This document shows, one piece after another, positions 4,314-44,069 of a DNA stretch of 53,184 bases. A program made the translations under genes and the position numbers. Within the stretch, counting starts at the first letter, position 1. The number at the start of each line of letters is the position of its first letter. Source of the DNA: an uncultured Gemmatimonadaceae bacterium (GTDB lineage: Bacteria > Gemmatimonadota > Gemmatimonadetes > Gemmatimonadales > GWC2-71-9); NCBI GenBank assembly GCA_964501735.1, contig CAZCVG010000001.1:1-53184 (forward strand), written 5' to 3'. A model generated the notes under the pieces. The model worked only from the letters and a program-made list of their open reading frames with translations. It did no database searches and was not told the DNA's origin.

Positions 4314-4900
4314 TCGCCCTGGTGAGCGGCGTGCTCCGGGAGCGCGACGGCGACACCGTGCTCATCGAGACGGCCAGCGGCCTGGGCTACGCCGTCACCG
4401 TGCCGCTCGGCGTGCTGGAGCGGCTGCCTCCCAACGGGGAAGCGGTGCGGCTCCACACCGAGCTGGTGGTGCGGGAGGACGGCTGGGCCCTGTACGGCTT
4501 CGACCGGACCGGCGAGCGGGCCGTGTTCCAGCGGCTGCTGTCCGCCTCGGGCTTCGGCCCCCGGCTGGCACTGGCGGTGCTCTCCACCCTGGGGCCGGAG
4601 CGGGCGGTCCGGAGCATCCAGCAGCGGGACCTCGCCACGCTGTCGTCGGTGCCGGGGATCGGCCGCAAGAAGGCCGAGAAACTGGCCGTGGAGCTGGCCG
4701 ACCGCTTCTCCGCCCTGCCCGGGGAGCTGCCGGCGGGGCCGGCCAGTCCCTCCGACGACGCCACCCAGGCCCTCATCCGCCTCGGGTATTCGCCGGCCCT
4801 GGCCGAGGAAGCGGTCCGCGAGGCCCTCGCGGCCGGCACCAGCGGCACCGCCCAGGTGATCCGGGCGGCGCTGGTCTCGCTGGCCGGCAAGCGAGGGTGA
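4310..4900 (+). CDS. ruvA: Holliday junction branch migration complex subunit RuvA
   Basis: MIALVSGVL start and the helix-hairpin-helix block VPGIGRKKAEKL. Length is 196 aa. Confidence 0.92.
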   Translation: MIALVSGVLRERDGDTVLIETASGLGYAVTVPLGVLERLPPNGEAVRLHTELVVREDGWALYGFDRTGERAVFQRLLSASGFGPRLALAVLSTLGPERAVRSIQQRDLATLSSVPGIGRKKAEKLAVELADRFSALPGELPAGPASPSDDATQALIRLGYSPALAEEAVREALAAGTSGTAQVIRAALVSLAGKRG

Positions 4901-4949
4901 GCCGCCCGCCCGCCGTGTCCACCGCATCACTATCACGGGAGTCCGCCGC

Positions 4950-5126
4950 ATGACCGTTGCCGCCACCACCGCCGAATGGATCTGCACCCGCTGCGGCAGC
5001 ACCAACCGCCGCCTGGTCGCCGCCACCACCGGCCAGACCACCGACCGCTGCGTCCACTGCCACGCCCGGCACACCATCGAGCCGGATGACCGGCCGGTGC
5101 GCTGGAACGCCACCCTGCGGGCCTGA
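4950..5126 (+). CDS. 58-aa zinc-ribbon protein (CxxC...CxxC), not in the ORF track
   Basis: GGGAG lies 8 nt upstream of the ATG. Translation is [58 protein letters not shown]. Nearly all codons end in G/C. It fills the ruvA-ruvB gap exactly. Confidence 0.6.
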
Positions 5127-5134
5127 CCAGCGCG

Positions 5135-6157
5135 ATGTCCCGCCTGCAGATCACCACGCCCGAGCCGCTGCCCGAGGAGAGCGGCGCCGACGCGGCGCTC
5201 CGTCCCGGGCAGCTGGAGGAGTTCGTCGGGCAGGCCCAGGTCAGGACCTCGCTCCGGATCGCCATTGACGCGGCCCGGCACCGGGGGGACCCGCTGGACC
5301 ACCTGCTCCTCTTCGGCCCGCCCGGCCTGGGGAAGACCACCCTGGCGATGCTGCTGGCCCGGGAGATGGGCGTCCAGCTCCGCACCACCTCCGGGCCGGT
5401 GCTGGAGAAGCCGGGCGACCTGGTCGGCATGCTCACCACGCTGCAGGCGGGGGACATTCTCTTCATTGACGAAATCCACCGGCTCCGTCCGGTGCTGGAG
5501 GAGTTCCTCTATCCCGCCATGGAGGACTTCCGGGTGGACGTGCGGATCGCGGACGGTCCCAACGGCCAGACCATTCCCATGGCCATCGAGCGGTTCACCC
5601 TGATCGGAGCCACCACCCGCTTCGGGCTGCTCACGCCGCCGATGCGGGCCCGCTTCGGCATGGTGGAACGGCTGCACTTCTACCCGCCCGAGGATCTCCA
5701 GGTGATCATCCGCCGCTCGGCCAAGATCCTGGGCGTGGCCGCCGACGACGAGGGCACCGGCGAAATCGCCCGGCGCAGCCGGGGCACGCCGCGGGTGGCC
5801 AACCGGCTGCTCCGCCGGGTGCGCGACTATGCCCAGGTCAAGGCGTCGGGCACCATCACCGGGCCGGTGGCCCGCGAGGCGCTGGGGCGGCTCAACGTGG
5901 ACGAGTTCGGCCTGGACGACATGGACGCCCGGCTGCTCACCACCCTGATCGAGAAGTTCGGCGGCGGGCCGGTGGGGCTGAACACCCTGGCCATCGCGGT
6001 GGGCGAGGACAGCTCCACATTGGAAGAAGTGTACGAGCCGTACCTGATCCAGCAGGGGTTCCTGGAGCGGACCCCGCGCGGGCGGGTCGCGACCCCGCTT
6101 GCCTACCGGCGCTTCGGCTTCACTCCGCCTGCCGGCGCCCAGGAGTCCATGCTCTGA
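5135..6157 (+). CDS. ruvB: Holliday junction DNA helicase RuvB
   Basis: [14 protein letters not shown] Walker A and [10 protein letters not shown] Walker B. Length is 340 aa. Confidence 0.95.
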
Positions 6158-6171
6158 TCCGCAGCACCCCC

Positions 6172-7197
6172 ATGCCGCTTGCCACCTCGGATTTCGACTA
6201 CCAGCTGCCGCCGGAGCTGATCGCCCAGGAACCGCCCGCGGCGCGGGGCGAGAGCCGCCTCCTGGTCCTGCCCCGGGGCGGCCCGCCCGCCGACCGGCGC
6301 TTCGCCGACCTGGTGGACCTCGTCCCGCCCGGCGACCTGCTGGTCCTCAACACCACCCGGGTGCGCCACGCCCGCTTCCTCGGCACCCGCCCCAGCGGGG
6401 CGCCCGCCGAGGTGCTGCTGCTTCACCCGGCGCCCGGGGGCGGGTGGGTGGCGATGGGCCAGCCGGGCAGCGCGCTCCGGCCCGGCAAGCGGGTGGCCCT
6501 GGGCGGCGGCGCCTTCATCGAGACGGTGGCGCTGCTGGACGGGGGATACCGGGAGGTGCGCTTCGTGGGAATGCCTGACACGGAGGCCATCGCCCGCTTC
6601 GGCCGGCTGCCCCTGCCGCCCTACATTGACCGCGCCCCCACCGCCGCCGACGAGCAGCGTTACCAGACGGTGTACGCCGAGCGGGAAGGCAGCGTGGCGG
6701 CGCCCACCGCGGGGCTCCACTTCACCCCCGCGCTGCTGGCGGCGCTCGAGGCCCGGGGCGTGCGGATCGCCCGCCTGGACCTCGAGGTGGGCCCCGGCAC
6801 CTTCAAGCCGGTGGAGGTGGAGGACCCCACCAGCCACCCGATGCATCCCGAATGGTACGAGATCCCCGAGGCCGCCGCGGCGGAGATCGCCGAGACCCGG
6901 CGCCGGGGCGGCCGGATCTGGGCGGTGGGCACCACCGTGGTGCGGGCGCTGGAGAGCTCCGCCGGCCCGGGCGGAACGGTCGTGGCCGGGCGGCGCGAGA
7001 CCCGGCTGCTCATCACCCCCGGCCATGCCTTCCAGGTGGTGGACCGGCTGGTCACCAACTTCCACCTGCCCCGCTCCACCCTGCTCATGCTGGTGGCCGC
7101 CTTCGGCGGCTACGCCGAGGTCATGCAGGCCTACCGGCACGCGGTGCGGGCCGGCTACCGGTTCTATTCGTACGGCGACGCCATGGTGGTGGTGTGA
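6172..7197 (+). CDS. queA: tRNA preQ1(34) S-adenosylmethionine ribosyltransferase-isomerase
   Basis: FDYQLPPELIAQEP N-terminus and the FYSYGDAM C-terminus. Confidence 0.92.
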   Translation: MPLATSDFDYQLPPELIAQEPPAARGESRLLVLPRGGPPADRRFADLVDLVPPGDLLVLNTTRVRHARFLGTRPSGAPAEVLLLHPAPGGGWVAMGQPGSALRPGKRVALGGGAFIETVALLDGGYREVRFVGMPDTEAIARFGRLPLPPYIDRAPTAADEQRYQTVYAEREGSVAAPTAGLHFTPALLAALEARGVRIARLDLEVGPGTFKPVEVEDPTSHPMHPEWYEIPEAAAAEIAETRRRGGRIWAVGTTVVRALESSAGPGGTVVAGRRETRLLITPGHAFQVVDRLVTNFHLPRSTLLMLVAAFGGYAEVMQAYRHAVRAGYRFYSYGDAMVVV

Positions 7198-7232
7198 CCG
7201 GACCGGTTGCGTTATCCGTTCCCCTCGCCTGA

Positions 7233-8709
<1,477 letters not shown>

Positions 8710-15310: not shown

Positions 15311-16366
15311 ATGCTGCTCGCCATCGAGACCTCCTGCGACGAGACCTCCGCGGCCATCCTGGGCCGGGACGGGGAGCGCCCCACTCTCAAGAGCCTGGTC
15401 ATCCTCTCCCAGGACGTGCACCAGGTCTTCGGCGGCGTGGTGCCGGAACTGGCCAGCCGGGCGCACCTCGTCACCATCCAGCAGGTGGTGGACCGGGCCC
15501 TGGAGGATGCCGGCACGAGCCTCGAGGAACTCGGCGGCATCGCCGTCACCGCCGGGCCGGGGTTGGTGGGAGCGCTGCTGGTCGGGGTGATCTACGGCAA
15601 GACCCTCGCCTACCGGCTCGGGATCCCGCTCATCGGCGTGCACCACCTGGAGGGGCACCTGTTCGCCCCCGTGCTGGAGCACCCCGGGCTGGAGCCGCCC
15701 TTCGTCGCCCTGCTGGTGAGCGGCGGCCACACCCTGCTGCTCGACGTCACGGCCTGGGGCGCCTACCGGCTGCTGGGCACCACCCGCGACGACGCCGCCG
15801 GCGAGGCGTTCGACAAGGTGGGCACCCTGCTCGGGCTGGGCTATCCCGGTGGTCCCGCCATCGAGCGCCTGGCCACGGCAGGCAACCCCGGGCGGTTCCG
15901 GTTTCCCCGCCCGATGCTGCGTGAGACAGCGGTGCCGGGGCCCGACCGCTACACCTTCTCGTTCAGCGGGCTCAAGACCGCCGTGCTGCGTGCGGTGCAG
16001 CAGAGCGATGACCTGGAGCGTGACCGCCCCGACCTGGCGCGGGGCTTCCAGGATGCGGTCGTCGAGGTGCTGGTCGAGAAGGCCGCCGCGGCCATCGAGA
16101 GCCTGGGGTACCAGACCCTGGTGCTCGGCGGCGGGGTCGCCTGCAACGGCGCCCTCACGGCCGCCGCCCGCGAACGGGTGGGGCCGGGAAGCCGGGTGGT
16201 GGTCGCCTCGAATCGCCTCAATACCGACAATGCCGCCATGATCGGCGCGGCGGGGCTCTTCCGGCTGGGCCGGGGGGAGCGCGCCGGGCTCGACCTCGAA
16301 CCCCGGGCCGATCTACCTTTCCCGGGCCTGCTCACCTCCGCCACCCTCCACGGAAGTCCCCGATGA
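15311..16366 (+). CDS. tsaD: tRNA N6-adenosine threonylcarbamoyltransferase
   Basis: LAIETSCDETSAAI and GVHHLEGHL metal site. Confidence 0.95.
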   Translation: MLLAIETSCDETSAAILGRDGERPTLKSLVILSQDVHQVFGGVVPELASRAHLVTIQQVVDRALEDAGTSLEELGGIAVTAGPGLVGALLVGVIYGKTLAYRLGIPLIGVHHLEGHLFAPVLEHPGLEPPFVALLVSGGHTLLLDVTAWGAYRLLGTTRDDAAGEAFDKVGTLLGLGYPGGPAIERLATAGNPGRFRFPRPMLRETAVPGPDRYTFSFSGLKTAVLRAVQQSDDLERDRPDLARGFQDAVVEVLVEKAAAAIESLGYQTLVLGGGVACNGALTAAARERVGPGSRVVVASNRLNTDNAAMIGAAGLFRLGRGERAGLDLEPRADLPFPGLLTSATLHGSPR

Positions 16367-17196
16367 ACATCTATCCCTTCATCGTCAAGGTCGGCCCCCT
16401 CGAGATCACCGGCTACGGGATCATGATGATGGTGGGCTTCCTCGTCGGCGGCTGGCTCATCACCCTCGAGCTGCGGCGCCGCGGGCTGTACGAGGAGTAC
16501 GCCGCCGACATCACCGTCGCCGCCGTCATCGGCGGGATCGTCGGCGCCAAGCTCTGGTACTGGGCCATGAACGGCGGCAGCCTCTTCTCCCGCGGCGGGC
16601 TGGTCTGGTACGGCGGGTTCGTCGGGGGATTCCTGGCGGTGATGCTCAACGGCTGGCGGCTCAAGGTCCCCATCCGCTGGACCTTCCATCTCTGCGCCCC
16701 GGCCCTGGCCGCCGCGTACGCCCTGGGCCGCATCGGCTGCTTCATTGTCAACGATGACTACGGCCACCCCACCGACCTGCCCTGGGGCGTCAAGTTCCCG
16801 CAGGGGCTGCCGCCGTCCACCGCCGAGCAGATGACCCACCAGTTCGGCATCGCCGTCCCGGCCGGCACCGATCCCGCGACAGTGCTGGCGGTCCATCCCA
16901 CCCAGCTGTACGAGGCGGCCATCATGCTGGGGGTGTTCGCGCTGCTGTGGCGGCTCCGGCTCCAGGCCCGCGCCATCGGCTGGATCTTCGGCATCTACCT
17001 GCTGTGCGCCGGGGTGGAGCGGTTCCTGATCGAGATCCTGCGAGCCAAGGACGACCGCTTCTTCGGGCCGCTCACCATCGCCCAGGTGGTCAGCATCGGC
17101 CTGGTCCTGGGCGGAGCCATCCTGCTCCAGCGGCTGCGGGAGGACGACAACCTGGCCCCCGGACCATACCTCACGCGCAGCCCGGCGGCGTCCTAG
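16363..17196 (+). CDS. lgt: prolipoprotein diacylglyceryl transferase
   Basis: YGIMMMVGFLVG, GRIGCFIVNDDYGHPTDLPWGV, polytopic membrane profile. Confidence 0.92.
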   Translation: MNIYPFIVKVGPLEITGYGIMMMVGFLVGGWLITLELRRRGLYEEYAADITVAAVIGGIVGAKLWYWAMNGGSLFSRGGLVWYGGFVGGFLAVMLNGWRLKVPIRWTFHLCAPALAAAYALGRIGCFIVNDDYGHPTDLPWGVKFPQGLPPSTAEQMTHQFGIAVPAGTDPATVLAVHPTQLYEAAIMLGVFALLWRLRLQARAIGWIFGIYLLCAGVERFLIEILRAKDDRFFGPLTIAQVVSIGLVLGGAILLQRLREDDNLAPGPYLTRSPAAS

Positions 17197-17210
17197 AAAT
17201 GTCGTTGAGC

Positions 17211-17259
17211 GGCAATTTTTGCCGGCATTTATTGCCGCACCGGCAAAATTATCCGGCAA
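17211..17259 (+). promoter_or_regulatory. cluster of GGCAA/TTGCC half-sites (candidate enhancer/UAS for an NtrC-type activator)
   Basis: GGCAA-TTT-TTGCC (17211-17223), GGCA-N5-TGCC (17224-17236) and the perfect TTGCCG-CAC-CGGCAA (17232-17246). CCGGCAA is repeated at 17240 and 17253. Confidence 0.45.
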
Positions 17260-17291
17260 GAAATGCAGGCACGAAAACGTAAGGCACTGCA

Positions 17292-17304
17292 AATCAACAA
17301 CTTG
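17292..17304 (+). promoter_or_regulatory. IHF core binding site
   Basis: AATCAACAACTTG matches WATCAANNNNTTR exactly. It lies between the palindromes and the -24/-12 element. Confidence 0.45.
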
Positions 17305-17319
17305 CGAAAATGTGATTTA

Positions 17320-17335
17320 TGGCACATGGCCTGCT
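17320..17335 (+). promoter_or_regulatory. sigma54 (-24/-12) promoter
   Basis: TGGCACATGGCCTGCT versus the consensus TGGCACG-N4-TTGCW. GG (17321-22) and GC (17333-34) are at the canonical 12-nt offset. Confidence 0.5.
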
Positions 17336-17345
17336 ATTTAACCGG

Positions 17346-17490
17346 GCGTGCGGCACTACAACGGTGCCCAACCGGAAGTGGCGGGCCGAAGAAGAGTGGA
17401 GCGAACATCCCGTTCGTCTCCGTCTAAACTCAGGGGGCGGTCCGTCACCCCACCACTGCAAGACGCCGGCTCGATTCGAGCCGGCGTTTT
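17346..17490 (+). ncRNA. candidate sigma54-dependent small RNA (family not recognised)
   Basis: The predicted start is about 12 nt after the -12 GC. Stem-loops are at 17352-17368, 17397-17421 and 17433-17451. The only open frame uses rare A/T-ending codons. It ends at the intrinsic terminator. Confidence 0.4.
17462..17490 (+). terminator. rho-independent terminator
   Basis: ACGCCGGCTCG-att-CGAGCCGGCGT is an 11-bp stem, followed by TTTTGCGTT. In the reverse orientation the T-tract is weaker. Confidence 0.75.
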
Positions 17491-17580: not shown

Positions 17581-19707
17581 TCAGGCTCCCGGCCGCCGTG
17601 AGGTGCTGCGCAACAGCAGGCTCTTGAGACGCTCCACCTCGGCGCGGAGCTGGGCCAGGTCGGCGTCCATGCGGTCGAGCGCGCGCAGCATGTCCTGCTC
17701 CACCCGCATGGGACGCTCTTCCGGGATCTGGGCTTCGGCGCTCCGGGCTTCGGGAGCGTCGGGGACCATCACCTGGGTCACCTCCAGGCGCCGGGGCTCG
17801 ATGACGAACGTCCAGACCAGCCCCGCCACCAGCAGGAGGACCAGCACACCCTGGAGCGCGAGCGACTCCACGGTGGGGTAGATGCCGAGGGCCGGGAGCC
17901 GGGGCGCCCAGGCGACGATCGTGGTGCCGATCACGCCGCCCTCCTGCAGCTCGGCGATGCCCTTCCCGGCGAACACGAAGGCCATGTAGTAGAGGAACGC
18001 GCTGGTGACCCCGAAGAAGGGCTTGAGCGGAATCTTCACGCCCCAGCGGTTGATCGCGAAGTACACCAGCGCCAGCACGGCGCCGCCCACCACCATGCCC
18101 ACCACCACCGGGAGCGCCGACCCGGCGCTGGCCAGGAACAGCGCCTTGTAGAACAGCACGGTCTCGAACCCCTCGCGATACACCGCCAGGAAGGCCACCG
18201 AGGCGAGGGCCAGCGCCGAGCCGCTGGTCACGGCGTCCTGCACCCGCCCCTTCACGAACCGGTTCCACTTGGCCACTTCCATCTTGGAGAGCAGCCAGTA
18301 GCTCACGTAGAAGAGCATCACCGTGGCCACCAGCATCACGCCGCCCTCCAGCGCCTCCTGCCGGGCACGGCTCACCTGGAAGATGGTCTCGAGCAGCAGG
18401 GCGGTGAGCAGGCTCGCGCCGATGGCGGCCACCACCCCGATATGCATGTCCCGCCGGCGCTCCCCCGCCCCGGTGCGCACCAGGAAGGTCATGAGCGCGC
18501 CGACCACCAGGATGGCCTCGAGGCCTTCGCGGAGCAGAAGGACGAAGGACTGCAGGAAGAGGTTGAGCGGCGAGAGCCGGTCCCCCACGGTGCGCTCGGC
18601 GTTCTCGAGGTCGCCCAGCAGGCGCACATGGAGGGTCCGCAATTCGGCCGCGGTGGCCCCGCCCGCCGCGCGGGTGCGCAGGTTGGCGAAGCCGGCCTCG
18701 AGGGAGTTGGCCAGGCCCGGGTTCTTGGCCCGCACCCCGCGCTCCACCTGCTCGAAGGTCATGTAGGCATCGAAGGCCGTGCTGCTGGCGTCCTCGCCCA
18801 GGCCGGCGCTGGCCAGCGCCAGCGCCGAGTCGAGTTGCGCCCGCACCCGGGCGAAGACCGGGCCGACCGCATCATGGTCGGTCTCCTGGGTGGCAAAGGT
18901 GCGAATCGCGGCGACCCGGGCCCGGGCCTCCACTGCGGCTGGATCGAGATCCGGTGCGGCGGCCAGGGCCAGCTCCACATCCGAAAGCCGGGCGGTGCTG
19001 CCGAACTCGCGAAGGGCGGCGGGCACCTCGCCCCGGGGCGCCGGCAGCCGGAGGGTTGACGCATACACCGCCACCGCCCAGCGCTCCTCGGCCGTGAGCC
19101 GGTTCTCGTAGGCCGGCATGGCGGTGCCGGCCACGCCGATGGTGATCCGGCGGTAGAAGTCGAGCGGGGTAACGGTGGCCAGTCCGCGGTAGTCGCTCAG
19201 GTCAGCGGGCATGGGGTCCAGTGCCTGCCCGGCGGGACCGTCGCCACGCCCCACCCCGCCGTGGCACGAGGCGCACTGGGTCTGGTACACCTGGGCGCCC
19301 AGGCTCAGGGCCGGCGCCCGGGCCGGGATCTCGTCCAGAGAAACGTTGAAGCGGGTGGCGAGGGCACTGGAAAGCTCCCGGGCCAGCAGGGTCAGGCTGT
19401 CCGGCGGCGCGGTACGCGCCACCATCGCCAGCATCCGGTCAAGGTTGGCGATGGCATCCCGGCCGGCCTCATGCGGCAGGAGACCGGCGCTCCGCCGCGC
19501 CTCCGTCAGGAAGAGCCGCGCCTCGTCCACTTCCGGGGCGAGGACCACCTTGCCGTCCTTGACGCCGAGGCTGTATTCCTGCGCGGCCAGCGCGGTGGTC
19601 GCCGCGATCCGGCGCACGGTGGCCGTCTGGTCATCCTGGGGCGCCGCAATCGGGAGGGCTAGCAGCGAGGCGATCAGGGGAGCCGCAGCGATGAGAACCA
19701 TTCTCAA
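17581..19707 (-). CDS. cytochrome c - FTR1/EfeU iron permease fusion protein
   Basis: Has a signal peptide and a CASCHG heme-c motif about 145 residues in. The C-terminal half is polytopic with two REXXE motifs (REGLEAIL, REGFETVL). The tail is a coiled coil. Confidence 0.85.
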   Translation of the reverse strand: MRMVLIAAAPLIASLLALPIAAPQDDQTATVRRIAATTALAAQEYSLGVKDGKVVLAPEVDEARLFLTEARRSAGLLPHEAGRDAIANLDRMLAMVARTAPPDSLTLLARELSSALATRFNVSLDEIPARAPALSLGAQVYQTQCASCHGGVGRGDGPAGQALDPMPADLSDYRGLATVTPLDFYRRITIGVAGTAMPAYENRLTAEERWAVAVYASTLRLPAPRGEVPAALREFGSTARLSDVELALAAAPDLDPAAVEARARVAAIRTFATQETDHDAVGPVFARVRAQLDSALALASAGLGEDASSTAFDAYMTFEQVERGVRAKNPGLANSLEAGFANLRTRAAGGATAAELRTLHVRLLGDLENAERTVGDRLSPLNLFLQSFVLLLREGLEAILVVGALMTFLVRTGAGERRRDMHIGVVAAIGASLLTALLLETIFQVSRARQEALEGGVMLVATVMLFYVSYWLLSKMEVAKWNRFVKGRVQDAVTSGSALALASVAFLAVYREGFETVLFYKALFLASAGSALPVVVGMVVGGAVLALVYFAINRWGVKIPLKPFFGVTSAFLYYMAFVFAGKGIAELQEGGVIGTTIVAWAPRLPALGIYPTVESLALQGVLVLLLVAGLVWTFVIEPRRLEVTQVMVPDAPEARSAEAQIPEERPMRVEQDMLRALDRMDADLAQLRAEVERLKSLLLRSTSRRPGA

Positions 19708-24750: not shown

Positions 24751-26097
24751 CTATCCGGCGATGGCATAGCGCTTGATCTTGTTGATGAGCGTGGCCCGCG
24801 AGATGCCCAGCTCCTCCGCGGCGCGGGTCCGGTTGCCCCCGTGGTGCCGCAGGGTCCGCTCGATGTGGGCCCGCTCCAGTTCATCCAGGGTCATCGGAGT
24901 GTGGCGCCGGTCGCCCGGGCCGGGCCGGTTGCGGAACTCGGCCGGCAGGTGCTCGATCCCCACCGCCGGCTGTCCCCGGGCCAGGATCAGGGCCCGTTCC
25001 AGGATGTTGCGCAGTTCGCGGACGTTTCCCGGCCATCCGTGCGCCAGCAGCCGCTCCAGGGCCTCGGGGCCGATCGCGGCGGGGGCGCCGGAAATATGCC
25101 GCTGCAGCTGGTTGACGATGGCCAGGAGCAGTGTCAGGCGGTCTTCCCGCGGCCGCTCCCTGAGCGGTGGCAGGGTCACCGGCAGCACGCTGAGGCGGTA
25201 GGCCAGGTCCTCGCGGAAGGCCCCCGCCTCGACCCGGACGGCGAGGTCGTGGGCAGTGGCGGCGATGATGCGGACGTCGGCGCTCAGGTCGCGGCTGCCG
25301 CCGACCCGGCGGAAGCTGCGGGTCTCCAGCAGCCGGAGCAGCTTGGGCTGGAGCTCGGCGGGCAGGTCGGCGATCTCCTCGATGTACAGCGAGCCCCCTG
25401 CGGCGGTCTCCACCAGCCCGGGGCGCCGTTCCCGGGCCTGGTCCACCGTGGCCGACTCGGCCCCGAACAGGTCGGCATCGAGGTCGGCCGCCGAGCGGCC
25501 GAAGAGGGAGGCCGAGACGAAGGGGCCGGCGGCCCGCGGGCTCAGCTGGTGGACCAGCCCGGCCAGCCAGCCCTTCCCCACCCCGCTCTCGCCCCGGATC
25601 AGGACGGCGGTGCGCTCCGACAGCGACACCAGCCCGACCTGGGTCAGCAGCTCGCGCATCATGGGCGAGCCACCCAGCGATTCCAGCGCGTCGTCCGGCG
25701 CCGCCCGGAGCAGGAGCAGCTCGTTGAGCCGCTTGAGCCGGACTTTGTCGGCCACCCGGGCCACGGCGGCGAGCAGGTGGTCGAGATCCACCGGCTTGGT
25801 GAGGAAGTTCTCGGCCCCCAGCTGCATCGCCTGCACCGCGGTGGCCACGTCGGCATGCCCGGTGAGCAGGATGACGGCGGCGTTGCGCTCGCGGAAGCGG
25901 GCCAGCGCCTCCAGCCCGTTCACGCCCGGCATGCGGAGGTCCAGCACCACCACCTCGGGCCGCAGGCGGTCGTAGGCGGCCAGTCCCGATTCGGCATCGA
26001 GTTCCCGGGCCACCTCATACCCGCCCCGCTCGAACACCTGGCCGATGGCGCGCAGCACGCCCTCGTCATCGTCTACCAGCAGCACTGAATCAGGCAT
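24751..26097 (-). CDS. NtrC-family response regulator (receiver + AAA+ + Fis-type HTH) with a degenerate GAFTGA loop
   Basis: Internal ATG gives MPDSVLLVDDDEG. Has VLDLRMPG, Walker A GESGVGKG, FREDLAYRL, WPGNVRELRN and the C-terminal HTH AAEELGISRATLINKIK. Confidence 0.88.
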   Translation of the reverse strand: MPDSVLLVDDDEGVLRAIGQVFERGGYEVARELDAESGLAAYDRLRPEVVVLDLRMPGVNGLEALARFRERNAAVILLTGHADVATAVQAMQLGAENFLTKPVDLDHLLAAVARVADKVRLKRLNELLLLRAAPDDALESLGGSPMMRELLTQVGLVSLSERTAVLIRGESGVGKGWLAGLVHQLSPRAAGPFVSASLFGRSAADLDADLFGAESATVDQARERRPGLVETAAGGSLYIEEIADLPAELQPKLLRLLETRSFRRVGGSRDLSADVRIIAATAHDLAVRVEAGAFREDLAYRLSVLPVTLPPLRERPREDRLTLLLAIVNQLQRHISGAPAAIGPEALERLLAHGWPGNVRELRNILERALILARGQPAVGIEHLPAEFRNRPGPGDRRHTPMTLDELERAHIERTLRHHGGNRTRAAEELGISRATLINKIKRYAIAG

Positions 26098-28333
26098 GCG
26101 GACTCCTTGCGATCCTGGTGGGATCGCGCGGCAGCTGCAGCGCGAACCGGGCCCCGCCCTCGGCGCGATTGCCGCCGGTGATCTCGCCGCCGTGCGCCCG
26201 GACGATGCCGTGCGACAGCGACAGGCCCAGCCCCGTGCCCTTGCCCTGCGGCTTGGTGGTGAAGAACGGCTCAAAGATGCGCGACAGCGCCTCCGGGGGG
26301 ATCCCCGGCCCGCTGTCGAGCACCTCGAAGCCAACCCAGTCCGCCGTGGACCAGGTGCGAACCAGCCCTTCCCGGCGCCCGGCCTGCTCCATGGCCTGGG
26401 CCGCGTTGACCAGCAGGTTGGTGATCACCTGGCGGACCTGGTCGGGGTCGGCGCTGACCATCGGGAGCGTCGGATCCAGCCCCAGGGTCCAGATGGTGCC
26501 CGGCGCCGCCAGCGCCGGCGTGGTGGCGAAGGTCTCGCGCACCAGCATGTTGAGGTCGGCGTCGCGGCGCTCCAGCGGCCGCTGGCGGGCGAAGGTGAGC
26601 AGGTCGGTGACGATCCGGGCGGCCCGCATCGCCTCCTGCTGCACCGTCTCCAGGCCGCGGCTCAGGTCCTCGGCATCCCCGGGATCGAAGCGCAGGGCCT
26701 GGGCCATCGCGGCAATCCCGGCCAGCGGGTTGTTGAGCTCGTGGGCCACGCCCGACACCAGTGCGCCCAGGGCGGCCATCTTCTCGGAGTGGGTGAGCCG
26801 CTCGCGCAGCTCCACCTCCTCGGTCACGTCCCGGCCGATCCCCAGGACCGCCCGCAGCCCGCCCCGCTCCTCCACCGGGACGATCACCGCCGCCGCCTGA
26901 CGCAGGGCCCCGTCGGCCCGGCGGAAATGAAACAGGAAGTCGCGGGTCTCGCCCTGGAAGCTGCGGGCCAGCTCGCCCGCGACGTAGTCCCACTCGGCCG
27001 GCACCACGAAGCTGTCGAGGCGGGCCGCCGCCTCCGGCCCGGCCACCCCGGCCAGCCGGATCGCGGCGCGGTTGGCGGAGAGGAAGCGATGGTGGCGGTC
27101 CAGGGTGAAGATGGCCACCGGCGCCCGGTTGAACAGGGCGCGAAAGCGGCGTTCCGAGCGCCGCAGCGCCTCGGTGGCCAGCCGCTCCCGGGTCACGTCC
27201 CTGGCGACCGCCACCACCCCGGCCGGTGTCCCCCGCTCCTCCAGCTCGGCCACCGAGACATCCGCAATGCGCACCCCGTCGGGGCGGCGGATGAGGGCCT
27301 CGTAGCGCCGGGGACCCTCGCCGGCGTGCTCCCGCGCTTCCTCCGGCAGCAGGGCGCTCAGCGGCCGGCCCACCAGCTCGGCGGGCGGCCGGCCGAACAG
27401 CTCGCCCGCCGCCGGATTGGCCAGCACCACCTGCCCCGGCGGGTCGGTCAGCAGGATGGCCTCCATGGCGGTGGCGACCAGCCGGCTGTAGCGGGACTCG
27501 AGCCGAACGTAGTGCGTCACGTCGTCCACCGCGATGACGAACCCGCCGTCGCGGCGCGGCGTGACGCTCAGCACCGCATGCTGCCCCAGCCGGGTGTCCA
27601 GGAACCGGCTGGTGCGCTGGCCGCTGAGCCGGGCCTCGCCCAGCGGGTCCCCCGCCCGGGGCCAGCCGGCGAACACCCGCTCAAGCGGCAGTCCCGGCAG
27701 GTCGGTGACCTCCACGCCCGCGATGGTGGCCATGAAGCGGTTGGCGCGCTCGATCCGGCCCGCCGCGTCCACCAGGGCCAGCCCGTTGCCGGTGCCGTCG
27801 AAGGCGGCCTGCCACTCCTGCTTGACCCGCACCACGGTCTCGGTGAGGCGGCTGCGGCCGATGGCCAGGGCGGAGAGGTCGGCGAAGGCGCGGGCCAGGG
27901 TGCGTTCCCCTGAAGCATAGGCCTTCGGTGCGTCATGATAGAAGGCCAGCCACCCCATGACCCGCCCGCCGTAGCTCAGCGGGAGGGCCGCCACGCCGGC
28001 GAACCCCTCCGCCTGCACCGCGCGGTGGATCGGGCTGGTGGTATCGGTGCGGGCATCCTCGGCGAAGTAGGCCTCCCCCCGGACGGCGCTGCCGGCCGCG
28101 TGGGTCTCGCGATAATGCTCCAGCACCTCGGCCAGGTAGGCCGGCGACAGCCCCACGACCAGCTCGGCCCGGGCCACGCCGGTATGCTCGTCCAGCAGGA
28201 ACAGCGCCGCCCGCTGGGCGCCGAAGACCCGGATGCCCTCGTCCACCACCGCCGCCATGGTGCCCGCGGCGTCCTCGGTCCCCGCCAGCAGGTGGGCCAC
28301 CCGGCCCAGCGCGGTAACGTGGGACCCGCTCAT
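26090..28333 (-). CDS. cytoplasmic GAF / multi-PAS sensor histidine kinase
   Basis: ATG at 28333 overlaps the upstream stop (ATGA). H-box VAHELNNPLAGI, N-box NLLVNAAQAM, DSGPGI, GTGLGLSL. No TM segments seen. Confidence 0.88.
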   Translation of the reverse strand: MSGSHVTALGRVAHLLAGTEDAAGTMAAVVDEGIRVFGAQRAALFLLDEHTGVARAELVVGLSPAYLAEVLEHYRETHAAGSAVRGEAYFAEDARTDTTSPIHRAVQAEGFAGVAALPLSYGGRVMGWLAFYHDAPKAYASGERTLARAFADLSALAIGRSRLTETVVRVKQEWQAAFDGTGNGLALVDAAGRIERANRFMATIAGVEVTDLPGLPLERVFAGWPRAGDPLGEARLSGQRTSRFLDTRLGQHAVLSVTPRRDGGFVIAVDDVTHYVRLESRYSRLVATAMEAILLTDPPGQVVLANPAAGELFGRPPAELVGRPLSALLPEEAREHAGEGPRRYEALIRRPDGVRIADVSVAELEERGTPAGVVAVARDVTRERLATEALRRSERRFRALFNRAPVAIFTLDRHHRFLSANRAAIRLAGVAGPEAAARLDSFVVPAEWDYVAGELARSFQGETRDFLFHFRRADGALRQAAAVIVPVEERGGLRAVLGIGRDVTEEVELRERLTHSEKMAALGALVSGVAHELNNPLAGIAAMAQALRFDPGDAEDLSRGLETVQQEAMRAARIVTDLLTFARQRPLERRDADLNMLVRETFATTPALAAPGTIWTLGLDPTLPMVSADPDQVRQVITNLLVNAAQAMEQAGRREGLVRTWSTADWVGFEVLDSGPGIPPEALSRIFEPFFTTKPQGKGTGLGLSLSHGIVRAHGGEITGGNRAEGGARFALQLPRDPTRIARSPHA

Positions 28334-29229
28334 GCCCGGGCCGCCGGGGCGAGCACCCGGATCGCATCGGGGATGACCTCGACCGTGAAGGGGGTGACCC
28401 CGTGCGGCTCCCCGTCGAGTTCCACCGGCTGCTCCACCTCGGTCTCCACGGTGATGACCCGGCCGCGGGCGTAGCGCACGAACCGCGGCTCGTCCCGGCC
28501 GCCCCGCAGGAGTTCCCACACGGCCCGGACGCTGTCCAGCAGCCCGTCGGCCCGGATCACCACCACGTCCAGGAGCCCGTCATCGGGAGCGATGCCCTGG
28601 CGGAGCCGCACCAGGGGCGGGATGACCTCTCCGCAGTTGGCCACCAGCACCAGCGCGGCATCGGCCTCGTAGCTGGTGCCGTCCACCGTGATGTGGTGGC
28701 GGATGCTGCGGAGCTCCGGCATCAGCCGGAGGGTGGTGGCGATGTAGGCGGCGAAGCGCCAGCGGTGCTTCTCGGAGGCGCTGGTCCCCGCCATCACCCG
28801 GGCATCGTAGCCGGCCCCGCAGGCCACGGCGAAGTAGTGCGGGCCATCCTCGCGCTGCATCCGGCCGAGGTCGAGGGACATCGGCTTGCTCCGGAGCATG
28901 GCCCGAGCGGCGCGGACGGGGGACAGCGGAATCCGCAGGTTGCCGGCCAGCAGGTTGCCGGTCCCACCCGGGATCACGCCGAGGGCGGTGCCGCTCCCCA
29001 CCAGGGCGGCGGCGGCCTGCATGGTGGTGCCATCGCCGCCAAACACCCCCACCACATCCAGTCCCTCCTCCACCGCCTCGGCGGCGAAGCGCCGCGCATC
29101 CCCCGGCCCGCCGGTGGCGCGAAGCTCGACCGTCCAGCCCCCCCGCTCCAGGGTCTCCACCACGGCCCGGATGCTGAGCTCCTGGGTGCGGGCGGCGGCG
29201 GGGTTGGTGATGACCAGGGCGCGGGTCAT
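28330..29229 (-). CDS. diacylglycerol/lipid kinase catalytic-domain protein (YegS/BmrU-like)
   Basis: MTRALVITNPAA start, VFGGDGTTMQAA (GGDGT) and IPGGTGNLLA. Confidence 0.85.
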   Translation of the reverse strand: MTRALVITNPAAARTQELSIRAVVETLERGGWTVELRATGGPGDARRFAAEAVEEGLDVVGVFGGDGTTMQAAAALVGSGTALGVIPGGTGNLLAGNLRIPLSPVRAARAMLRSKPMSLDLGRMQREDGPHYFAVACGAGYDARVMAGTSASEKHRWRFAAYIATTLRLMPELRSIRHHITVDGTSYEADAALVLVANCGEVIPPLVRLRQGIAPDDGLLDVVVIRADGLLDSVRAVWELLRGGRDEPRFVRYARGRVITVETEVEQPVELDGEPHGVTPFTVEVIPDAIRVLAPAARA

Positions 29230-42886: not shown

Positions 42887-42965
42887 TCCACATATCCTCG
42901 GGCCGGTTTTCCCCCAAAAGGCACATCTCAACACTTCGTATCATCAAGTTATTCATTGACTTAAC

Positions 42966-42994
42966 TCTCGCCTACCAGTAGGTAGGTGTGAGTT
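42966..42994 (+). promoter_or_regulatory. distal sigma70-type promoter (P2) of the sigma-factor gene
   Basis: TTGACT, a 17-nt spacer, then TAGGTA. The -10 is embedded in the inverted repeat CCTACC-agta-GGTAGG (42981-42996). Confidence 0.35.
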
Positions 42995-43070
42995 CGGCGC
43001 CTCCGAACGGTGGATAAGTCCCGCAACGGGGTGCCAATGAACGATTTGTGATGTGGATATCAATTTCTGC

Positions 43071-43099
43071 TTGACCACTTTTTATAGGCGTCCTATATT
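43071..43099 (+). promoter_or_regulatory. proximal sigma70-type promoter (P1) of the sigma-factor gene
   Basis: TTGACC, a 17-nt spacer, then TATATT. This is the best sigma70 match in the window and leaves a leader of about 70 nt. Confidence 0.55.
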
Positions 43100-43175
43100 C
43101 GCACACCCATCCGGCGGCCATTGCCTCGGCCGCGCCCCTAGCGCCACAACCAGCCGATCGTCACGCGGAGCTTGC

Positions 43176-44069
43176 ATGTCTGCGCTGAAACAGAGCCGGG
43201 CCAAGGCCTTCTTTCGTCCCACCGCCAGTGGTGCCTTCGACCAGTACCTCCAGGACATCCAGAAGCTGCCGATGATCACCGACCCGGCCGAGGAGAAGCG
43301 GCTGGCGCGGCTGGCCCAGCAGGGGGATGAGCGAGCGGCGGAGCGGCTGGTGACGGCCAACCTCCGCTTCGTCATTTCCTACGTGAAGAAGTACCAGGGT
43401 CACGGGCTGGACCTGTCGGAACTGGTCGCCATCGGCAACGAAGGGTTGCTCAAGGCGGTGCGGAAGTTCGATCCCGACCACGGGGTCAAGTTCATCTCCT
43501 ACGCGGTGTGGTGGGTCCGGCAGGCGGTGCTCAAGGCGCTGGCCGAGCAGACCCGCAGCGTGCGCATCCCGCTCAACCAGAACTCGGCCCTCATCAAGAT
43601 GTCGCGGGCCGAGACCTTCCTCTCCCAGGAACTGGGCCGGGAGCCGACCGACGAGGAGATCGCCACCGCGCTCAACGACTCCGTGGACAACATCCGCTCC
43701 GCCAGGCGCATGACCTCGGCGGAGCTTTCGCTGGATGCCCCGGTGGAGCGGAGCGACAAGAGCAGCGGCACCCTGGGCGAGCGCTTCGCCGGCACCCAGG
43801 GCGGCGACATCGAGGAGAAGACCGACGCCCGGCTGATGCGCGAGTTCATTGACCGCATCTTCCAGCGCTATCTCACCCCCCGCGAGCGCAAGATCCTGTA
43901 CCTCTACTACGGCCTCGAGGAGGGCAGCGAGGCCCTCACCCTCGAGAAGATCGGCGAGCTGCTCGGCGTCACCCGCGAGCGCATCCGCCAGATCCGCGAG
44001 CGGGCCTTCGAGAAGCTGCGCGAGTCACCCGACGTCAAGGGACTCAAGGGATTCTGGGTGGCGGCGTAG
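43176..44069 (+). CDS. RpoD/SigA-family sigma-70 factor lacking region 1.1 (297 aa)
   Basis: FDQYLQDIQKLPMIT (region 1.2), NLRFVISYVKKY and FISYAVWWVRQAV (region 2), TLEKIGELLGVTRERIRQIRERAFEKLR (region 4.2). The ATG is chosen because P1 lies inside the longer track ORF. Confidence 0.88.
   Translation: MSALKQSRAKAFFRPTASGAFDQYLQDIQKLPMITDPAEEKRLARLAQQGDERAAERLVTANLRFVISYVKKYQGHGLDLSELVAIGNEGLLKAVRKFDPDHGVKFISYAVWWVRQAVLKALAEQTRSVRIPLNQNSALIKMSRAETFLSQELGREPTDEEIATALNDSVDNIRSARRMTSAELSLDAPVERSDKSSGTLGERFAGTQGGDIEEKTDARLMREFIDRIFQRYLTPRERKILYLYYGLEEGSEALTLEKIGELLGVTRERIRQIRERAFEKLRESPDVKGLKGFWVAA

Follow-up and report, generated by a model that had tools for sequence, protein, structure and literature searches.

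What is encoded between lgt and the iron permease gene that converges on it in an uncultured Gemmatimonadaceae bacterium? The window analysed here, a stretch of 53,184 nucleotides of this organism's genome, carries lgt as an open reading frame (ORF) at 16363-17196 (+), whose product matches the Pfam LGT family at 1.4e-50, and a convergent ORF at 17581-19707 (-) with FTR1 and cytochrome c domains (Pfam). The 384-bp gap left between the two includes, at 17214-17333, the lowest GC content of any 120-nt stretch of the window (0.45 vs 0.73 overall). A preliminary description of the locus, made from the letters alone, had drawn attention to this gap as the most AT-rich stretch noticed; the composition bears this out, and the gap length and the coordinates listed there all agree with the sequence. 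We consider it likely, from the signals that the sequence carries, that 17209-17490 is a stand-alone gene for a regulatory RNA of about 145 nt transcribed by sigma-54 RNA polymerase. It represents a previously uncatalogued RNA family, the regulatory design of which is itself already known from glmY, qrr, nrsZ and crcZ. It is unusual in two respects, namely its invariant internal loop of purines and the three-way rewiring of its promoter.

The conserved RNA module and its predicted promoters

BLAST and nhmmer searches of the gap in the 80 closest species-level loci (hereafter designated by L-numbers, as are the further loci described below) recovered a 76-nt core in 56 of them, on the same strand as lgt and about 200 nt past the lgt stop codon; two tandem copies, about 110 nt apart, are found in 22 loci of this set. 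Scanning metagenomes with the two invariant blocks of the core yielded 120 further loci (a covariance model confirmed approximately 63 of the first 80 of these), bringing the element to 151 of 201 sources and 182 copies in all. The 128 distinct upstream regions available for comparison belong to 99 loci with one module and 29 with two tandem modules, and in the two-module loci each module is preceded by a spacer hairpin of its own.

The structure of this RNA is conserved along with its sequence. The window segment 17346-17492 (147 nt) folds at -76.5 kcal/mol (z = -5.8) into three stem-loop domains (a 5' hairpin, a long stem-loop with interruptions, and the GC-rich terminator hairpin), in agreement with the transcript of some 145 nt and three stem-loops put forward in the preliminary description, whose start is a predicted one. 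RNAalifold applied to 78 copies of the core returned helices P1, P2, P2b and P3, with compensatory double changes at 13 of 23 pairs; 99.0% of cells are paired, against 33-45% (about 41%) when the partners are slid, and none of 500 shuffles reached the observed value. The independent metagenome alignment, which was fitted to the covariance model and is thereby favoured towards the structure, gave 99.1% paired and 12 compensated pairs. The covariation of the stems, proposed as a check in the preliminary description, is thus positive at 12-13 of the 23 pairs. Frequent G-U pairs, together with scores of 14-18 bits on the reverse strand vs 88-94 bits on the forward strand, fix the strand as +. Mutual information revealed only the known helices and clade-linked indel columns, and a pseudoknot or extra tertiary pairs were rejected on this ground. 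Outside the core, 108 of 110 relatives have a leader with a folding energy of -5 kcal/mol or lower, and in 115 of 139 distinct relatives the last module is followed by a hairpin and a T-run. The GC-stem terminator of 11 bp recognized in the preliminary description is the window's version of this hairpin; a consensus terminator scan did not call it owing to the shortness of its T-run.

Measured between the two invariant blocks, the spacing leaves a remainder of 0, 1 or 2 on division by 3 in 39, 95 and 31 sequences, respectively, and stop codons occur in every frame. A small protein-coding gene was rejected on this account, and the variable frame supports the earlier assignment of the transcript as non-coding. 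A riboswitch or cis-acting leader was likewise rejected, a terminator and a convergent gene lying directly downstream in nearly all loci. The 76-nt module, tandemly duplicated in many relatives and persisting when the promoter type changes, is by its pattern of conservation the apparent functional unit.

The putative promoter is conserved as well. The window's -24/-12 element, for which the preliminary description had given exact coordinates, has GG and GC at the canonical sigma-54 spacing (consensus TGGCAC-N5-TTGCW), and the eight specified bases of TGGCA-N7-TGC are perfect in 105 of the 128 distinct upstream regions, with near-matches in 12 more. The element stands at a fixed 35-49 nt before the conserved core in relatives, its T/G/G/C/A and T/G/C columns being 96-100% conserved around a variable spacer; in three loci it lies only about 11 nt before the core, with the promoter abutting the core and the 5' hairpin P0 missing. 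The window contains two instances of TGGCAC-N6-TGCT, for an expectation of 0.08. We attribute the second match, at 4566, to chance, as it is located inside a coding region and is without palindromes; this region encodes a GIGRKKAEKLA helix-hairpin-helix-like stretch, which we tentatively take to be ruvA-like.

Four 17-bp units of the form CCGGMA-N5-TKCCGG (with at most one mismatch) are clustered at 17209-17269 and make up four of the eight matches in the window, for 2.25 expected window-wide. Palindromes 1, 2 and 3 have equivalents centred at -129 to -134 in clade-1 relatives, and at -116 to -121 and -96 to -101 in relatives, respectively, and palindromes 1 and 3 are about 32 bp, or three helical turns, apart. 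Across the window's clade the palindromes are centred at -131, -118 and -99 from the inferred start (39 loci with at least two sites), which matches the distance of about -100 to -135 originally proposed for them. A site near -85 was found in only 2 loci, marking the fourth palindrome-like unit as specific to the window's lineage; its function is doubtful. The preliminary description had resolved the same DNA into three palindromes. The palindromes are indeed present and their positions conserved, and GGCAA-TTT-TTGCC and GGCA-N5-TGCC turn out to be the cores of palindromes 1 and 2, but TTGCCG-CAC-CGGCAA arises where units 2 and 3 meet and is not the unit conserved in relatives. In the more distant clade, 32 loci carry another 17-bp palindrome, YGTCRA-N5-TYGACR, centred at about -110 and -176.

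A third arrangement is found in nine loci (L030, L155, L167, L191, L177, L113, L131, L135 and L084), where a sigma-70-type promoter (cTTGACAg-N17-TAnnnT; TTGCCG-N18-TACATT in L030) takes the place of the -24/-12 element. None of the nine has a palindrome cluster, from which it follows that the palindromes co-vary with promoter type. The eight sigma-70-type metagenome loci have in common a P1 variant, AAGUCCCAGGACG. Read across lineages, these sequences indicate that the RNA core stayed the same while the control of its transcription was rewired at least three times (the two enhancer types and the sigma-70 promoter).

Between the palindromes and the -24 element, the IHF site of the preliminary description stands as an exact match in the window, but relatives keep only part of it: both sigma-54 clades have an AA-N4-TT(A/G) core some 20 nt ahead of -24 (A 58-69%, T 88%). 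The comparison of related genomes that had been suggested there finds the -24/-12 element retained in most loci and the palindromes at fixed positions but of two types, depending on the lineage. Just upstream of the -24 element, TGTGAT is followed after 4 nt by TGGCACA to give TGTGA-N6-GCACA (17311-17329), a CRP/FNR-like near-palindrome that overlaps the -24 element and, from its sequence, could be the site of a second regulator. The coordinates of all these elements are collected in Table 1.

An NtrC-family two-component system is encoded 7.3 kb from the RNA, at 24751-28519 (-). It consists of a kinase (26090-28519, -) with GAF, three PAS, HisKA and HATPase domains and a response regulator (approximately 24751-26097, -) with REC, Sigma54_activat (150 bits) and Fis-type helix-turn-helix domains. 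The GAFTGA loop of this regulator is degenerate (ESATVDQA), like that of the GAFTGA-less NtrX chain 5m7n. In long contigs an orthologue is located 6.3-7.5 kb from the RNA, with GAFTDA in clade 2 and a degenerate loop in L192. The degenerate loop, and a helix-turn-helix that is identical across clades with differing palindromes, led us to reject this regulator as the probable cognate activator. Proteins with GAFTGA are encoded neither in the window nor in the 4-kb flanks.

Several points weigh against a sigma-54-dependent regulatory RNA gene at this locus. We infer the transcription start, the sigma-54 dependence and the termination from sequence, and the T-run of the terminator is short (3-4 U). 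Neither rpoN nor a cognate activator is seen in the 53 kb of genome available, the sole NtrC-family regulator in the window being without a GAFTGA loop and probably not the activator. Helix P2 (GAGU/ACUC) is never double-changed, so that the exact geometry of the adjoining internal loop is a predicted one. No complementary target was found in the conserved neighbours (the reverse complements of both invariant strands of the loop are not conserved in the flanking genes of 200 loci) and none stood out among 37 window genes, a duplex scan against their start regions giving nothing beyond z of about -2.9. Finally, a G-rich seed situated between two helices would be unusual for base-pairing small RNAs (sRNAs). 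On the favourable side, sigma-54 machinery is attested in the lineage: a sigma-54 homologue is listed for the type species of the order, Gemmatimonas aurantiaca T-27 (PMC3162934, supplementary file 1; Francke 2011), and the window itself codes for the response regulator with a Sigma54_activat domain described above.

Table 1. Features of the proposed RNA gene, with positions in the window and, for upstream sites, distances from the predicted start
Feature	Position	Strand	Remarks
Activator palindrome 1, GCGGCAATTTTTGCCGG	17209-17225		11/12 positions; centre ~-129
Activator palindrome 2, CCGGCATTTATTGCCGC	17222-17238		Centre ~-116; CCGG common to palindrome 1
Activator palindrome 3, CCGGCAAAATTATCCGG	17240-17256		Centre ~-98
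Fourth palindrome-like unit, CCGGCAAGAAATGCAGG	17253-17269		11/12 positions; centre ~-85
IHF-like site, AATCAACAACTTG	17292-17304	+	Exact match to WATCAANNNNTTR; ~-54 to -42
TGTGAT	17311-17316	+	Just upstream of -24; kept in clade-1 relatives only
Sigma-54 -24/-12 promoter, TGGCACATGGCCTGCT	17320-17335	+	TGGCAC-N5-CTGC; GG 17321-22, GC 17333-34
Predicted primary transcript, ~145 nt	17346-17490	+	Start placed by reference to the -12 element; ends with the T-run of the terminator
5' hairpin P0	17349-17370	+	Sequence variable, structure conserved
76-nt core module	17376-17450	+	nhmmer and covariance model; 88.6 bits, E 3e-20
P1 (11 bp)	17378-17388/17438-17448	+	Core stem
J5' AAGAA	17389-17393	+	5' strand of internal loop
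P2 GAGU/ACUC (4 bp)	17394-17397/17428-17431	+	Inner helix
P2b/P3 hairpin	17398-17421	+	Within core
J3' AGGGGG	17432-17437	+	3' strand of internal loop
Single-stranded tail, CCCACCACUGCAAG	17449-17462	+	Between P1 and terminator
Intrinsic terminator, 11-bp stem ACGCCGGCUCG/CGAGCCGGCGU, loop AUU, then UUU(U)	17463-17490	+	Stem 17463-17487

Genomic setting and lineage-specific loss

The lgt protein of the window is 94% identical to its counterpart in an uncultured Gemmatimonadales metagenome-assembled genome (MAG), and an exact-sequence look-up of the protein returned no record. By lgt, the 80 closest species-level genomes are Gemmatimonadales/Gemmatimonadota MAGs, with the exception of L054, which is labelled Acidimicrobiia and is without the RNA element. 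In all metagenome loci with enough flanking sequence the RNA is preceded by tsaD and then lgt, the latter in the same orientation as the RNA, and most of those with downstream sequence have the convergent FTR1 gene. Two loci depart from this arrangement: in L022 the RNA is retained in front of a same-strand gene other than FTR1, and in L051 the RNA lies 3 kb from lgt but still adjoins the convergent FTR1 gene. The intervening DNA of L051 contains, at 4897-7551, an ORF of about 900 amino acids between lgt and the RNA gene; a role for this insert as a regulator was rejected, the ORF having no Pfam domain.

In loci without the RNA, lgt and FTR1 are still convergent. Three loci contain decayed remnants of the gene: the promoter and a truncated core fused to the terminator in L007 (~4960-5060), the tail and terminator only in L029 (~4840-4890), and the ACUCAGGGGGCG part only in L070 (~4860-4930). 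Judged by their sequences, these remnants reflect lineage-specific loss of the gene. In L024, L031 and L034 (~4830-5100), the post-lgt gap has repeated REP-like palindromes (GCGACTGAAGTCGCG) instead of the RNA, followed in L024 and L034 by an ORF.

As for the flanking genes of the window, a terminator scan flagged no strong terminator belonging to lgt before the RNA promoter, only a weak hairpin at palindrome 1. This terminator-like structure (17200-17224) combines palindrome 1 with a T-rich spacer and may double as the lgt terminator. The convergent gene encodes a Cytochrome_CBB3/FTR1 iron permease fusion, 708 amino acids as listed; homologue alignments begin only at about residue 43, suggesting that its true start is probably later. 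Elsewhere in the window, the second most AT-rich stretch (42887-43175, GC 0.48-0.52) lies upstream of a gene for a sigma-70-family sigma factor (43176-44069; regions 1.2, 2, 3 and 4). It contains TTGACC-N17-TATATT (43071-43099) and the DnaA-box-like motifs GTGGATAAG and TGTGGATA, and the minimum of the cumulative GC skew of the window falls near 45 kb.

Candidate active site and modes of action

If the elements in Table 1 act as their sequences suggest, an NtrC-family enhancer-binding protein would bind the CCGGMA-N5-TKCCGG palindromes at about -129, -116 and -98, and an IHF-like bend near -48 would bring it to the closed complex at TGGCAC-N5-CTGC. ATP hydrolysis would then open the promoter, such that the RNA would be made only when the signal of the activator is present. 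The product, consisting of a variable 5' hairpin, the conserved 76-nt module and an intrinsic terminator, would act in trans through its invariant internal loop.

The candidate active site is delineated by 21 invariant columns, which are concentrated in CGAAGAAG(A/G)GUGG and ACUCAGGGGGCG. They make up the two sides of an internal loop that contains only purines and separates P1 from P2 (5' CGAAGAAGAGUGG, 3' ACUCAGGGGGCG). This loop is the most conserved part of the RNA, and its AAGAA and AGGGGG are predicted to be unpaired with a probability of 0.93. Diverged modules in L059 and L033 retain P1 and CAGGGGGCG and lose the 5' AAGAAGAG strand, a pattern that points to the G-rich strand of the loop as the key element. 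By analogy with the modular NrsZ, the reading that we prefer, although it falls short of probable, is that this exposed strand, CUCAGGGGGCG, serves as a seed for base pairing or kissing, with each module offering one copy.

The same conservation could be read as that of a protein decoy or sponge, whose purine-rich, ribosome-binding-site-like tracts (AAGAAGAGU and AGGGGG) would titrate a global RNA-binding protein. The invariance of both loop strands in an RNA whose usual seed-like single strands vary, the duplication of the whole module in 29 of 128 distinct loci and the absence of target complementarity nearby all speak for such a role. AAGAAGAGU conforms to (A-R-N)3, which is what the Hfq distal face recognizes, and the sigma-54-dependent CrcZ titrates Hfq/Crc; the tract is invariant in standard modules and absent from the L059 and L033 variants, and the 3' U-run is 3-5 nt long. 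That these two variants keep CAGGGGGCG without AAGAAGAG makes it less likely that the core function is to bind the distal face of Hfq, and the A-R-N triplets are invariant even at N, a tighter constraint than Hfq requires. A CsrA/RsmA-titrating RNA was rejected. RsmY and RsmZ titrate CsrA, but GGA occurs here, in the alignment of core copies, only inside helix P2b and in no hairpin loop, the exposed strand being AGGGGG. On balance a decoy function is the main alternative; it is conceivable, and we would give it limited credence.

We would give similarly limited credence to the idea that the internal loop (AAGAA/AGGGGG, flanked by the invariant CG/GAGU and ACUC/CG) constitutes not an mRNA seed but a specific pocket for a protein or a small ligand.

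The preliminary description had looked for the active segments elsewhere, in the C-rich AUCCC loop and the CACCCCACCAC tail, which could pair with G-rich ribosome-binding sites, a pairing that would repress translation. Unpaired bases are indeed predicted for the hairpin loop and for part of the tail, and CACCUC, identical to the 16S anti-Shine-Dalgarno core, is present in the tail of 49 of the 101 single-copy modules and of 22 of the 26 first copies, relatives often reading CACCUC(C/U). CCUCC, however, is found in the tails of only 20 of 101 single-copy loci and one of 24 second copies, and the P3 loop is freely variable in sequence (AUCCC, CUUCGG, UUCU and others), being a structural loop of the UUCG type in clade 2. 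Both segments are weak seed candidates because they are not conserved, the invariant parts of the RNA being the two purine-rich loop strands; we consider this mode of action improbable, and possibly an accessory one.

Action in cis on the cytochrome-c/FTR1 gene or on lgt, by antisense pairing, transcription interference or a shared bidirectional terminator, appears very remote. The placement of the RNA between lgt and FTR1 is strictly conserved, the insert of L051 after lgt left it beside FTR1, and the short T-run could permit read-through; yet L022 keeps the RNA with a downstream gene that is neither convergent nor FTR1, loci devoid of the RNA keep lgt and FTR1 convergent, simple interference requires no invariant structured core, and no complementarity to the neighbouring genes was found. 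Least credible of all is that there is no independent gene here, only an lgt 3' untranslated region with chance or otherwise-used promoter and palindromes, or else a small protein or riboswitch: lgt lacks a strong terminator and ORFs of 54 and 66 codons overlap the region, but the promoter bases are perfect at a fixed distance in most loci, the palindromes follow the promoter type, nine loci have an independent TTGACA-type promoter at the same place, the reading frame is not conserved, and the terminator and convergent gene downstream leave nothing for a riboswitch to control.

Relation to known regulatory RNAs

At the gathering threshold, the Rfam 15 covariance models matched nothing in the whole window; with a relaxed cutoff, the window gap, L010 and L076 showed only sub-threshold matches driven by the terminator. 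The preliminary description had not recognized the transcript as tmRNA, RNase P, SRP or 6S RNA, and the Rfam scan that it recommended indeed matched it to no family. The only weak Rfam match in the gap is to Pxr of Myxococcus, likewise an sRNA with an origin outside the classical Proteobacteria; the RNA is nevertheless not a member of that family (RF01812), the match scoring 19 bits against a threshold of 80, lying on the opposite strand and being carried by the terminator hairpin. Our literature searches found no study of sRNAs or RpoN in Gemmatimonadetes/Gemmatimonadota in the searchable literature.

The closest parallels are in design. The glmY and glmZ genes of Enterobacteriaceae (GlrR/QseF) are likewise stand-alone sRNA genes with a -24/-12 promoter, three activator sites approximately 100-240 bp upstream and an IHF site in between, where the present gene has an IHF-like one, and here too the sigma-54 promoter was exchanged for a sigma-70 promoter in some lineages while the RNA was kept, as shown experimentally for glmY/glmZ in some species (PMC3045617). 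They differ in that there is no homology of sequence or structure (no Rfam match) and the phylum is another one; moreover, no adjacent two-component system is shown to be cognate in our case, and there is no link to RapZ or glmS. The activator site of glmY/glmZ is TGTC-N10-GACA, unlike the CCGGMA-N5-TKCCGG or YGTCRA-N5-TYGACR of the present family.

NrsZ of P. aeruginosa (NtrC/RpoN) is a sigma-54-dependent sRNA encoded in a tail-to-tail gap and built of repeated modules with spacer hairpins and one motif each (PMC4253122). The window's RNA resembles it in having a promoter of the TGGCAC-N5-CTGC type, in its tail-to-tail setting and in its repeated stem-loop modules with spacer hairpins. In NrsZ, however, the motif ACAGGCAG is exposed in a hairpin loop, the gene adjoins ntrC and the modules number three, whereas the motif here is in an internal loop, there are one or two modules, and the two RNAs are not homologous.

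The Vibrio Qrr sRNAs (LuxO/sigma-54) also come from genes that depend on an enhancer with palindromes as activator sites, and their layout, with a terminator, is of the Hfq type too. There is no homology in this case, and Qrr seeds are single-stranded and contain pyrimidines. The likeness to glmY and qrr noted in the preliminary description stands as far as the design of enhancer, IHF-like site and -24/-12 element is concerned. It does not extend to the LuxO-like TTGCCG-N3-CGGCAA, the conserved unit being CCGGMA-N5-TKCCGG. With CrcZ and CrcY of Pseudomonas (CbrB/sigma-54) the RNA has in common the sigma-54 dependence that we propose for it and repeated A-rich or purine motifs that may bind a protein in place of an mRNA. 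CrcZ is about 400 nt long and has six A-rich motifs; in the present RNA, some variant modules do without the A-R-N-like tract.

Gemmatimonadota abound in soil and wastewater, and we found no regulatory RNA for them in Rfam 15 or the searchable literature. The family described here is highly conserved and comes ready-made: it numbers some 150 loci, has its own covariance model, and its predicted enhancer and promoter are defined. It would carry over to a distant phylum the design of activator sites, IHF and -24/-12 element known from the enhancer-dependent sRNAs GlmY and Qrr, and offers a natural experiment in rewiring in which a single RNA core is placed, depending on the lineage, under two enhancer types or a sigma-70 promoter. 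The palindromes give a starting point from which to identify the cognate enhancer-binding protein and the regulon that it controls. Should the internal loop prove to be a specific pocket, the family would constitute a new class of structured regulatory RNA, a decoy or sensor under sigma-54 control.

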